From the sequence record ON862890.1: a stretch of 64,000 nucleotides of DNA; one strand, 5' to 3'. This document shows positions 16,001 through 19,597 of the stretch, piece by piece. The position numbers and the translations under genes were made by a program. Each line of letters begins with the position of its first letter. Position 1 is the first letter of the stretch. Source of the stretch: Escherichia phage A221. The notes beneath the pieces were generated by a model, which did no database searches, had not been told where the DNA came from, and saw only the letters and a program-made list of their open reading frames with translations.

Positions 16001-16696
16001 ATGGCCAGACCATTTGAAAATTACTTCTACCATGATTCATTGATGAAATACATCAATCTGTTTGCCACCATTATGTCTGATCTGAAGGTGAACACAGAGC
16101 GTGGTCTTATGGAAGTCCCATTACACATGGCCATCGGGAGACGCAATGACCTCAACAGGAACGTGCCGTCCAACATGCTTCCATTTGCGACTTTCTCTTT
16201 TGGTCAGTTTGAGATCAACAAACAGGTGACGAAGACGTACCACAATCGACAATCGACACCAACAGCAGGGGCGAAGCAGCGAATCCCCCTGATTATCGAT
16301 TTTGAGTACAATATCCGAACCAAGAAATTGGTTGAGATGTTACAGGTGCTAGAGCAGGTTTATTCGGTATTCACTCCCTCTCTAGACTGTGGTATCAAGG
16401 ACAACGATACACTACAGCAAGACCAGAAGATCAAGATCCAACTGGTCAGCCACCAGATGTCCGATAACTGGGAAGGGGATGCTTCTGATTCACCACACGT
16501 CGACTGCTCCTTCATGTTCCAGCTGAGCGGCTTCATCTACGGGTATGACTATTGGGTGGACAACGAGGGAGGCGGGGATCCCAACGGGATCAAAGAGATA
16601 ATTATCGAAATGTCTAATGATTTGAAAACACCGTGGACGGAACTGCCGGAGTGGTTCCGTGTTGACAAAGACGGTGTACATCATCCTGGAGATTGA
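16001..16696 (+). CDS. gp15: tail sheath stabilizer / tail completion protein (T4 gp15-like)
   Basis: 231 aa; N-terminal and central segments resemble T4 gp15 as remembered; synteny gp13-gp14-gp15-gp16-gp17. Confidence 0.6.
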   Translation: MARPFENYFYHDSLMKYINLFATIMSDLKVNTERGLMEVPLHMAIGRRNDLNRNVPSNMLPFATFSFGQFEINKQVTKTYHNRQSTPTAGAKQRIPLIIDFEYNIRTKKLVEMLQVLEQVYSVFTPSLDCGIKDNDTLQQDQKIKIQLVSHQMSDNWEGDASDSPHVDCSFMFQLSGFIYGYDYWVDNEGGGDPNGIKEIIIEMSNDLKTPWTELPEWFRVDKDGVHHPGD

Positions 16697-16698
16697 TT

Positions 16699-17406
16699 AT
16701 GAGTGCTATGTCAGAACGCCTATTATCCACCCTCAGTGCTATCCAAGCGCGGGATGAGGTCGCTCAAGAAGTCATGGAGAAGACCTCGCCTATAGCCGGA
16801 AAAGATTACGATCCGGATACAGGCGAATGGTTGGGTGAAAAGCCTGCGGGGTATGAGCCTGTGGTGTTTCCTCCTTCATTGGACCCAGAAGAGCTGAAGC
16901 CCAAGGAGTCTAAGGTTCCAGACTTCGAAGACACTGATGCCACCACCGACTACAAACGCATCCGTGATACGACTTATGCCATGCAGGAAGCCACGATGTT
17001 CATGATGGGACAGGCAGCCAAACTTGCGACGACGACTGAAGCACCCCGTGCTTTCACAGTCTTCAAAGAGTTGGGTGAACTCATGCGCGGTCTGAACAAA
17101 GACCTGATGGAGAACCAAAAAACTATCAAGGCGGTCACGGGCGACAGAGAGCCACCTCCTGGAGACGAAACAACCGTCGAGGTCACCACGTCCCCTGATG
17201 GCACAACCACGGTCAACGTCGGTAAACAGGCCAGGTCTTCCCGTGATCTACTGAAGACCATCGAAGACGCCCGTAAACGTGCTGAAGAACGTGCTGCAGC
17301 GAAAGCTGCGTCCAAAGGACCTGATCCCGAAGAAGATGTAATCGACGTTCAGGCGGAGCCACAGCCGAAGGAAGAAGGTGAAGACGATGGCGTATCAGAA
17401 GCGTGA
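16699..17406 (+). CDS. gp16: terminase small subunit (T4 gp16-like)
   Basis: Track codon 1 is TTG; ATG at 16699 with ggaga RBS; central DYKRIRD...MQEATMFMMGQAAKLATTTE resembles T4 gp16; directly precedes large terminase. Confidence 0.55.
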   Translation: MSAMSERLLSTLSAIQARDEVAQEVMEKTSPIAGKDYDPDTGEWLGEKPAGYEPVVFPPSLDPEELKPKESKVPDFEDTDATTDYKRIRDTTYAMQEATMFMMGQAAKLATTTEAPRAFTVFKELGELMRGLNKDLMENQKTIKAVTGDREPPPGDETTVEVTTSPDGTTTVNVGKQARSSRDLLKTIEDARKRAEERAAAKAASKGPDPEEDVIDVQAEPQPKEEGEDDGVSEA

Positions 17407-19597
17407 TGTAGAATACGCCCCGCTCAAGACGGGGTTTAAGACAGAAGACGTCAGACTGCGTATGGACCAAACGTTCATGCGCAAGCCGTCTGTGCGTGCA
17501 CCTCGTGTGGAGTTGATGCTAACCGACGAACAAGAATCGGAGTTCGTCGAGTGTGCGATGGACGCCCATTACTTCGCCGCCAACTACTACAAGATCACGA
17601 CCATCGATAAAGGCTTCATCCTCTTTGACATGCACGATTACCAGAAGCAGTTGTTCCATGACTTCCAGGACTATCGATTCAATGCGGTCGTCCAGGCTCG
17701 TCAGTCTGGGAAATGTGTAAAAGGTGACACGCTTGTCACAGTTTACGATACTCTCAGCCAAGAGCAGTTGCTCCTGACCATAGGGGAGCTTCACAGCCGC
17801 TTCGAGGACGTCAACCACGCTTTGCCGCTGAATACCATTGGCAACCATGACAAGTTCGTGGACAGCCGCTTCGGCAAGCGTTACTTTGTGCAATCCGATA
17901 GTGGCTGGGTTCCGGTTATCGCAGCGCATAAGACGAAGAAATATGCGGAATTCGTTATTGTGACTGTTACTGGGCGGCGAATTAACGTGGCCGACGAACA
18001 TATATTCTTCACTCCGGAAATGAAGGAGATATTTGCCAAAGACCTGAATGCTGGGTCATACATCATGACGTCAGAAGGTCCAGAAGAAATCCGTGAGGTT
18101 TGGCAGACTGGTGAGACGCATCACATGTATGACCTACAGGTGAAATCTAGTGATCAGCGCTACTACACCAACGGCTTCCTCAGCCACAACACGACAGTCG
18201 TGGCAGCGTTCCTGCTCTGGTATGCGATGTTCCACTCCGACAAAGAGATCGCAGTACTGGCGAACAAAGAGAAGCAGGCGATTGAAATCCTAGATCGTAT
18301 TCGCAAAGCATATCAAGATTTGCCATTCTTCCTCCAACAGGGTTGTGAGAAGTTCGGTTCCACGCTGATCGAGTTCGAAAACGGATCAAAGATCTACGCC
18401 TATGCGACATCTTCCGACTCCATCCGTGGTCGATCTGTATCTCTCCTGTATGTGGACGAAGTGGCGTTCATTGAAAACGACTTTGAATTCTGGGAGTCTA
18501 CATTCCCGGCGATTGCATCTGCAGAGACTTCACGTTGTATTCTGACCAGTACGCCGAAAGGTCAGCGCGGGTTGTTCTACGACATCGTCACCAAGGCGAA
18601 CCCAGAACATCCACAATACAACGACTTCAAGCTCACAGAGGTCCCATGGTATCGTGTTCCAACGTACACCAAAGATCCAGACTGGGAATCCAAACAAAGG
18701 GCGAAGCTGGGTGATGCACGTTTCGATCAAGAATTCGGTATTAAGTTCCGTGGTTCTGTGGGATCACTGATACCTGCCAAGTGTCTGGACAAGATGACCT
18801 CGAAGCTGTATCAGGAGCCGAACGAGTTCACCAAGATTTATCACGACTACGATCCTAAACGCATCTATATGGGTATCGCAGATACAGGCAAGGGTGTCGA
18901 AGGGGATTATTCTGTGCTGACCATTATCGACATCACAGACTATCCTCACAAGATCGCAGCCAAGTATCGAAATAACACGATACCTCCAATGATGTATGCG
19001 TACACAATCGCCGATATGGGTGAGAAGTATGGAACGTGCCCGATGCTAGTCGAGACTAACAACGACGTGGGTGGTCAGGTAATCACAATTCTATACCAGG
19101 AAATTGAATATCCCGAGATCATATTCACTACAACAGATACCAAGGGTACAGGCAAGAGAATCGGTGGTCGCCGCCCTGAGCCTGGTATCAATACCAACAA
19201 GAAGGTGCGCACAAACGGCTGCGCCAACCTGAAAGCCCTGATTGAACGTGAAATGCTGGTGATAGATGACCAGGACACGATAGATGAACTCAGTACATTC
19301 GTATGGACTGGGACAAGGTATGAAGCCGATGATGGTTGTCATGATGACTGTGTAATGCCCCTCGTGTTGTATGCATGGGCGGTGAAACAAGAATGGTTTA
19401 GTGATCTCACCAATTCAAATATCTCTGCGGACATGAGAGGACGGTTGTCTGCGATGGAAGAATCACAGATGCTACCATTTGGGGGTATGATGACGACGCC
19501 AGATCCTCACTCTGTGGAGAACATCCCAGGGTTCGGTGGAATTCAGGTTTATGATGAACGCTCTGGTATGTCTATGGAAGAATGGCTGAGACGGTGA
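17387..19597 (+). CDS. gp17: terminase large subunit (T4 gp17-like), intein-containing
   Basis: DYQKQLFHDF...ARQSGK[intein]TTVVAAFLLW...IEFENGSKIYAYATSSDSIRGRSVSLLYVDEVAF matches T4 gp17 ATPase around an interrupted Walker A; track start 17378 is GTG, ATG at 17387. Confidence 0.9.
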   Translation: MAYQKRDVEYAPLKTGFKTEDVRLRMDQTFMRKPSVRAPRVELMLTDEQESEFVECAMDAHYFAANYYKITTIDKGFILFDMHDYQKQLFHDFQDYRFNAVVQARQSGKCVKGDTLVTVYDTLSQEQLLLTIGELHSRFEDVNHALPLNTIGNHDKFVDSRFGKRYFVQSDSGWVPVIAAHKTKKYAEFVIVTVTGRRINVADEHIFFTPEMKEIFAKDLNAGSYIMTSEGPEEIREVWQTGETHHMYDLQVKSSDQRYYTNGFLSHNTTVVAAFLLWYAMFHSDKEIAVLANKEKQAIEILDRIRKAYQDLPFFLQQGCEKFGSTLIEFENGSKIYAYATSSDSIRGRSVSLLYVDEVAFIENDFEFWESTFPAIASAETSRCILTSTPKGQRGLFYDIVTKANPEHPQYNDFKLTEVPWYRVPTYTKDPDWESKQRAKLGDARFDQEFGIKFRGSVGSLIPAKCLDKMTSKLYQEPNEFTKIYHDYDPKRIYMGIADTGKGVEGDYSVLTIIDITDYPHKIAAKYRNNTIPPMMYAYTIADMGEKYGTCPMLVETNNDVGGQVITILYQEIEYPEIIFTTTDTKGTGKRIGGRRPEPGINTNKKVRTNGCANLKALIEREMLVIDDQDTIDELSTFVWTGTRYEADDGCHDDCVMPLVLYAWAVKQEWFSDLTNSNISADMRGRLSAMEESQMLPFGGMMTTPDPHSVENIPGFGGIQVYDERSGMSMEEWLRR
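17714..18190 (+). other. mini-intein (159 aa) inserted in the terminase Walker A P-loop
   Basis: Insert begins CVKGDTLVTV, ends ...TNGFLSHN, followed by Thr; flanking sequence reconstitutes QSGK-TT P-loop; no endonuclease domain evident. Confidence 0.75.

Follow-up and report, generated by a model that had tools for sequence, protein, structure and literature searches.

A probable class 1 mini-intein with a putative recombinant tract in the Walker A P-loop of the large terminase of a ViI-like phage

RESULTS

Organization of the terminase locus

The window analysed here is a stretch of 64,000 nucleotides from Escherichia phage A221 (ON862890.1), a ViI-like phage of the Ackermannviridae. On its + strand, an ORF for the small terminase (gp16-like; 16693..17406), annotated in the records of phages LHE287 and Maynard, precedes the gene for the large terminase (TerL), and its 3' end overlaps the TerL start by 20 nucleotides. 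TerL is encoded by one continuous ORF running from 17378 (GTG) or 17387 (ATG) to 19597. Following the LHE287 and Maynard annotation we took the ATG at 17387 as the start, giving a gp17-like precursor CDS at 17387..19597 (+ strand) that specifies 736 amino acids (84.5 kDa), with the insert described below and the TGA stop codon included. At this gene, identity reaches 99.1% with Escherichia phage LHE287 and 97.7% with Agtrevirus phage AV101, and the window as a whole is 99% identical to LHE287. A tRNA scan of the window gave no hits.

The protein matched the Pfam families Terminase_6N (PF03237, 2.8e-17) and Terminase_6C (PF17289, 1.2e-06) as well as terminase large subunit families of PHROGs, with E-values down to 7e-56, and a phmmer search against the PDB returned RB49 and T4 gp17 (3ezk and 3cpe) with E-values of 1e-63 to 1e-64. 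These sequence matches assign the host gene to the T4-type large terminases (Terminase_6), with a predicted N-terminal ATPase and a predicted C-terminal RNase H-like nuclease.

An in-frame insert between the Walker A lysine and threonine

Two segments of TerL correspond to gp17. The first, residues 1-109 (N-extein, 17387..17713, + strand), aligns to gp17 up to SRQLGK and ends with the first half of the Walker A motif, ARQSGK (17696..17713; codons GCT CGT CAG TCT GGG AAA). The second, residues 269-736 (C-extein, 18191..19594, + strand), corresponds to gp17 from KTTVVAIFL onwards, the nuclease domain included; it begins with ACG ACA GTC GTG (TTVV) and contains both the Walker B motif LLYVDE (18443..18460; MIYIDE in gp17) and the coupling motif LTSTPKG (18542..18562; ITTTPNG in gp17). 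The ACG codon at 18191..18193 specifies a threonine that is the Walker A Thr and also the putative +1 nucleophile of a splicing reaction. Between the two segments lies an insert of 477 nucleotides, or 159 codons, at 17714..18190, which is in frame and separates the Walker A Lys from the Walker A Thr, so that the protein reads ARQSGK/C...HN/TTVVAAF (slashes mark the junctions). In the phmmer alignments against the PDB, TerL residues 28-109 are aligned to a gp17 segment ending in SRQLGK and residues 268-676 to one starting at (K)TTVVAIFL; because both gp17 segments share Lys as the boundary residue, they abut in gp17. When TerL was aligned by MAFFT with T4 gp17 and with the TerL of Vibrio phage K446, which lacks an intein, the insert likewise stood out as one clean block between K and T, and removing the insert gives a Walker A motif of ARQSGKTT as compared with SRQLGKTT in gp17. 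Since the identical insert with identical junctions is found in about 300 phage records, it is not a chance feature.

A preliminary description of this locus, made from the letters alone, had proposed a 159-codon insert inside the P-loop of a T4-like terminase, and the phmmer and MAFFT alignments bear this out. It had further described the insert as starting with Cys, ending with His-Asn and being followed by Thr, in agreement with the codons TGT at 17714-17716, CAC AAC at 18185-18190 and ACG at 18191-18193. Its coordinates and length were exact, but its residue numbers (113-271) had been counted from the GTG at 17378 and need correction, with the ATG at 17387 giving Cys110-Asn268. The comparison with intein-free homologs that it had proposed as a check also agrees with an insertion at this point, as T4 gp17, K446 TerL and five further intein-free TerL sequences (P0015-P0019) read GK/TT without interruption.

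The insert has the profile matches, predicted fold and residues of a mini-intein

Searching the insert against intein models, another check proposed beforehand, gave a score of 25.2 with the NCBIfam model of the intein N-terminal region (TIGR01445), passing its cutoff of 24.5. Two further models stayed just under their cutoffs: the Pfam model Intein_splicing (PF14890) at 34.8-34.9 with a gathering score of 35.8, about 1 bit short, and TIGR01443 at 14.1 with a cutoff of 15.6. PF14890 was matched individually by 18 of 20 members of the intein family, and a profile built from 20 sequences of the intein lineage matched solved inteins, namely gp41-1 (9e-13), VidaL (3e-12) and the CatC consensus intein (2.5e-11). 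No separate PHROGs family exists for the intein.

An AlphaFold model of the insert was calculated from a 31-row alignment of intein-bearing TerLs, which came from a search with full-length TerL as query (a word-indexed protein search with the intein alone returned two proteins). The model reached a pLDDT of 95.3 and a pTM of 0.88 and is almost all beta strand, as compared with a pLDDT of 39 from a 3-row alignment. In a Foldseek search of this model against the PDB, the top 50 matches were all inteins or BIL HINT domains, with TM scores of 0.6-0.8, and included VidaL (8.6e-11), Npu DnaB, Mxe GyrA, gp41-1, RadA and the TFIIB mini-inteins. The insert is thus confidently predicted to adopt the HINT fold.

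Fourteen positions are invariant across 31 sequences with 29-96% identity to the intein of the window (C1, K47, G64, T74, A93, D94, H96, M138, D140, T152, L156, S157, H158 and N159); among them are the catalytic residues in each of blocks A, B, F and G. Block A, CVKGDTLV (17714..17737, + strand), starts with the putative nucleophile Cys1. Block B, GRRINVADEHIFF (17972..18010, + strand), holds the invariant A93, D94 and H96, and its A-D-x-H motif (17990..18001, + strand) replaces the usual T-x-x-H. This invariant Ala at the block B Thr position is the sole deviation from the textbook pattern, and His96 is invariant; the motif aligns to CAFNH in VidaL, which has the same Ala, and to SEEH in gp41-1. 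Block F, HHMYDLQV (18119..18142, + strand), contains the invariant M138 and the conserved Asp140, and block G, NGFLSHN (18170..18190, + strand), closes the insert with the invariant L156, S157, penultimate His158 and terminal Asn159. The +1 residue is Thr or Ser in the relatives in which both junctions were located. The preliminary description had taken loss of the junction residues from a retained segment as the outcome that would speak against an intein; such a case was not found in the lineage, with C1, H158 and N159 invariant in the 31 sequences at no less than 29% identity.

About 40 residues separate blocks B and F, and no endonuclease domain was found in the insert by Pfam or in the AlphaFold model, the whole of which is one HINT domain. 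The term mini-intein, as used in the preliminary description, is therefore correct, being sustained by Pfam, AlphaFold and Foldseek alike, and a self-mobile homing intein is ruled out because neither a LAGLIDADG nor an HNH endonuclease is embedded. The only Cys of the insert is C1, which places it in class 1 and not in class 3, whose members have no N-terminal nucleophile and carry a block F Cys in a WCT triplet. Taken together, intein profiles, AlphaFold model and Foldseek matches describe the insert at 17714..18190 (+ strand) as a class 1 mini-intein of 159 amino acids (Cys1-Asn159, 18.3 kDa) with a single Cys.

A CBA120-type tract in an Ag3-type gene

The TerL gene of the window resembles two different relatives in different parts. 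The C-extein is 98.5% identical in amino acids and 90.9% in nucleotides to that of Ag3 (Agtrevirus), as compared with 91.5% and 79.2% for CBA120 (Kuttervirus). By contrast, the intein is 95.6% (amino acids) and 92.9% (nucleotides) identical to that of CBA120 and 74.8% and 78.0% identical to that of Ag3, and its 3' end is Ag3-type. Informative sites and sliding identity delimit a CBA120-type tract of 423 nucleotides at 17671..18093 (+ strand) in an otherwise Ag3-type gene, spanning the last 43 nucleotides of the N-extein and the first 380 nucleotides of the intein. CBA120-like states occupy 102 of the 110 informative sites inside the tract as opposed to 72 of the 378 outside it (Fisher 4e-47, with breakpoints that were chosen after seeing the data). 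The intein of the window is, judged from these nucleotide comparisons, a recombinant mosaic.

A homing-type event would be bounded by the ends of the intein, and this was rejected since the tract starts 43 nucleotides upstream of the intein and stops 97 nucleotides before the intein 3' end. Breakpoints lying away from the intein ends point to homologous recombination between two intein-bearing alleles rather than to homing into an empty site. In Kuttervirus there are two intein alleles, Vi01-type and CBA120-type, which are 78.6% identical in the intein with exteins that are 99.5-100% identical, and phage ISTP3 is a Vi01/CBA120 mosaic.

Distribution, selection and intein-free alleles

The gene with its insert is present in more than 250 Ackermannviridae genomes. 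Among cultured phages, about 282 records have an extein identity of at least 80% and 278 have an intein identity of at least 60%; the sampled close relatives all matched TerL in two pieces, and the nearest cultured intein-free TerL found was that of Vibrio phage K446. Between genera of the Ackermannviridae, the exteins had a dN/dS of about 0.02 and the intein one of 0.04-0.21. The intein evolves faster than the exteins but is clearly constrained by purifying selection.

Closer intein-free alleles were found in the TerL sequences P0015-P0019, which read ARQSGK/TTVVAAFL at the site. For P0015 the alignment covers the C-terminal 64% of the query (576 aa) with 85% identity; identity is 74-78% for P0016-P0019. 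The contigs of these alleles keep the gene order gp13-gp14-gp15-gp16-gp17-gp18-gp19-gp20, and in DNA sequence their empty sites agree with the flanks of the insert in the window at 34-38 positions out of 45 to either side. When the spliced exteins were placed in a neighbour-joining tree, the intein-free alleles fell inside the clade bearing the 159-aa intein. A mobile element would be expected to show such a sporadic distribution, but as the tree is without bootstrap support the nesting is only suggestive.

Endonucleases were also looked for outside the insert. P0121, which has a distant intein at the same site, carries a LAGLIDADG domain. Larger inserts of 420-450 amino acids at this site (P0054, P0060 and P0064) contain no endonuclease recognisable in Pfam, and they therefore do not show that the mini-intein descends from an endonuclease-bearing ancestor. 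In the LHE287 counterpart of the window, where many ORFs are hypothetical, no free-standing homing endonuclease gene is annotated.

DISCUSSION

Relation to known inteins

An intein in the P-loop of TerL is already known in this family and has been annotated in sister phages since 2013, making the feature an ordinary one. The RefSeq record of Salmonella phage Maynard bears the CDS note "intein from Cys110-Asn268" together with a mat_peptide "intein", the same residues as in the window, and the intein described here shares 75% identity with the nr entry "intein [Salmonella phage Maynard / Marshall]". The Maynard genome paper of 2013 states that the large terminase "is interrupted by an intein" (PMC3868846), and a TerL intein is likewise reported in the papers on phage Mooltan (PMC6486243) and Klebsiella phage Magnus (PMC6763660). 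The intein of Maynard and Marshall (Kuttervirus) shares gene, insertion point, length (159 aa) and residue numbers with that of the window, but it is a different allele, since the latter combines a CBA120-type first 380 nucleotides with an Ag3-type 3' end. What is new here, and minor, is the recombinant tract and the nested intein-free alleles.

The position is equally familiar: Kelley et al. 2016 (PMC5050341) describe the junction of the invariant Lys with the nucleophilic Thr as the "classic" P-loop site for inteins. The TerL1-a P-loop inteins of mycobacteriophages occupy the same Walker A Lys/Thr site of a large terminase ATPase; however, their host is a Terminase_1-type TerL, whereas that of the window is a T4-type Terminase_6 protein (PMC5050341). 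In the same survey the inteins of Terminase_6 proteins lie in the C-motif (site f) and not in the P-loop, and five other TerL inteins (sites b, c, e, f and g) have been shown to splice (PMC5050341). Our literature search found no experiment showing splicing of any Ackermannviridae TerL intein.

By profile and fold, the best matches are gp41-1 and VidaL (PDB 6qaz and 6vgv), which are compact HINT domains with no endonuclease and, in VidaL, the A-x-x-H form of block B that the window's intein also has. Their identity to this intein is 18-19%, and the latter differs in having an extended N-terminal lobe, where about 95 residues separate block A from block B and two short helices are modelled. A related TerL intein (31-33% identity) is found in the Campylobacter phages CP220 and IBB_35, again in the P-loop region of a T4-like TerL, but it is inserted three residues upstream (PRQ/C...HN/SSKST) with Ser as the +1 residue, and the IBB_35 TerL gene also has an intron with an HNH endonuclease.

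Alternative explanations

On the evidence above we are highly confident in reading the insert as a canonical class 1 mini-intein that sits within the Walker A P-loop of TerL and would be removed by splicing to restore the terminase. Rather than being a purely selfish, trapped element, the intein might be adaptive, acting as a conditional switch responsive to redox state, temperature or substrate that delays terminase activation until late infection. Roles of this kind have been proposed for P-loop inteins in the literature (PMC5050341), and they would fit both the purifying selection on the intein and its fixation in essentially all cultured enterobacterial Ackermannviridae despite the lack of an endonuclease. 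However, an intein in an essential site would in any case be under purifying selection, the nesting of intein-free alleles within the clade suggests that the intein is dispensable, and with its single Cys the intein cannot form a disulfide trap within itself. We consider such a switch unlikely. Quite improbable, too, is the broader proposal that the intein is an obligatory condition-sensitive switch of the packaging ATPase whose alleles spread across genera by recombination without a homing endonuclease; if it were true, the CBA120-type tract in an Agtrevirus gene would be an allele replacement caught in progress.

A degenerate HINT domain that no longer splices (a BIL-like domain or dead intein) would require TerL to tolerate the insert, or the insert to undergo cleavage without ligation. 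The PF14890 score of 1 bit below the gathering score and the replacement of the block B Thr by Ala could be read in this way, and a degenerate junction (...LSSQ/T) does exist in a distant jumbo-phage TerL. By contrast, the solved VidaL intein, too, has block B in the A-x-x-H form, purifying selection acts on the TerL intein, and C1, H96, D140, H158, N159 and the +1 Thr or Ser are kept across deep divergence. Moreover, the Walker A motif whose GK/T the insert splits is essential, and the near-identical LHE287 record lists no second TerL in the part that corresponds to the window. Together these observations make a dead intein very improbable. Removal of the insert as RNA (a group I intron), or an artefact of assembly or annotation, deserves next to no credence even though introns or homing endonuclease genes do interrupt TerL in some related phages (including the P0052, P0056 and P0059 fusions), because the insert leaves the reading frame unbroken, the window has no match in Rfam, the HINT fold is confidently predicted and the same insert recurs in about 300 independently sequenced genomes.

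Implications for Ackermannviridae terminases

As a discovery the intein is of little importance, given its RefSeq annotation since 2013, its mention in several genome papers and its textbook P-loop position. It could nevertheless be of use in protein engineering, where a compact 159-aa intein with Cys1 and Thr+1 and natural GK/TT junctions represents a candidate tool. Most records, including that of LHE287, are without intein annotation and some Dickeya phage records say "pretoxin HINT domain protein"; both the intein and the mature TerL ought to be labelled in annotations of Ackermannviridae genomes. Since the intein has recombined between genera and changes several times faster than the exteins, it should be dropped from TerL phylogenies of the family.

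Established intein chemistry suggests how the mini-intein would act in the phage. The 84.5-kDa precursor would be unable to form the P-loop. Splicing would start with an N-S acyl shift at Cys1 (Cys110), after which trans-esterification would pass the ester to the side chain of Thr+1 (Thr269). Cyclisation of Asn159 (Asn268), aided by His158 (His267), would then free the 18.3-kDa intein, and an O-N shift would yield a 66.3-kDa TerL with a restored ARQSGKTT motif, able to hydrolyse ATP and to package DNA. The Walker A Lys of T4 gp17 is required for ATPase activity and packaging. Because insertion between GK and T would block the P-loop of a protein that needs this Lys, we infer that DNA packaging in these phages should depend on splicing. 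With no endonuclease encoded, the element is unable to home on its own; it would persist because imprecise loss would destroy an essential motif, while its sequence may move between co-infecting phages via ordinary homologous recombination.

Insertion points and sizes of related TerL inteins

Two inteins were found in a single TerL in Vibrio phage vB_VmeM-32 (locus L010, 1075..3213) and in P0050, one of them in each case occupying the K|T site of the P-loop, between the Walker A lysine and threonine. The second intein lies immediately 3' of the Walker B Asp-Glu in vB_VmeM-32 (…YVDE|C…SHN|CAF) and shortly upstream of Walker B in P0050 (…IRGKS|C…SHN|CALLYLDE). Campylobacter phage CP220 (locus L012, 78..2312) carries a related TerL intein in the same P-loop as the K|T-site inteins but at another insertion point, three residues upstream (PRQ|C…SHN|SSKST), with serine as the first C-extein residue (+1).

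Larger inteins of 420-450 amino acids occupy the same site as the window intein in three metagenomic TerLs (P0054, P0060 and P0064), their N-terminal lobe being longer by about 270 highly charged residues; these inteins were examined for a Pfam endonuclease domain and none was found. The same-site intein of P0121 begins with alanine and contains a LAGLIDADG domain.

Non-canonical frames, endonuclease fusions and record annotation

The intein-like TerL segment of the uncultured jumbo phage LR756500 (locus L013, 2860..4746) ends in …TNGILSSQ|T rather than SHN|T and has its N-terminal part in another frame. It may represent a degenerate or non-canonical intein. In Delftia phage PhiW-14 (locus L011, 2438..2941), the TerL CDS is annotated from a start within the intein. 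The roughly 500 bp upstream, where the N-extein and the intein N-terminus would be expected, are unannotated and not in the same open frame. A frameshift or an intron may lie behind this, or the annotation may be in error. The vB_VmeM-32 record begins within the TerL gene, and its annotated CDS start consequently falls inside the first intein. In the Dickeya phage records KM209228, KM209320 and KJ716335, the TerL gene is named 'pretoxin HINT domain protein', a mis-annotation caused by the intein.

In P0052, P0056, P0059 (Vibrio phage VP-1) and P0090, TerL breaks off in the nuclease domain after …FDQE(F/Y) and a GIY-YIG endonuclease (PF01541) continues in frame, a fusion which suggests that the 3' half of TerL has acquired an intron or a homing endonuclease gene. 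The P-loop intein is absent from P0090.

Recombination in TerL genes

A mosaic TerL gene containing an intein that is itself mosaic was observed in Salmonella phage ISTP3 (locus L008, 2174..4384), in which a CBA120-like N-extein is followed by an intein that runs from Vi01-like through CBA120-like and back to Vi01-like sequence. In the window, a 423-nt tract (17671..18093) is of the CBA120 (Kuttervirus) type, and the rest of the TerL gene is of the Ag3 (Agtrevirus) type. The tract is a product of inter-genus recombination centred on the intein. The intein is best excluded from TerL trees of Ackermannviridae.
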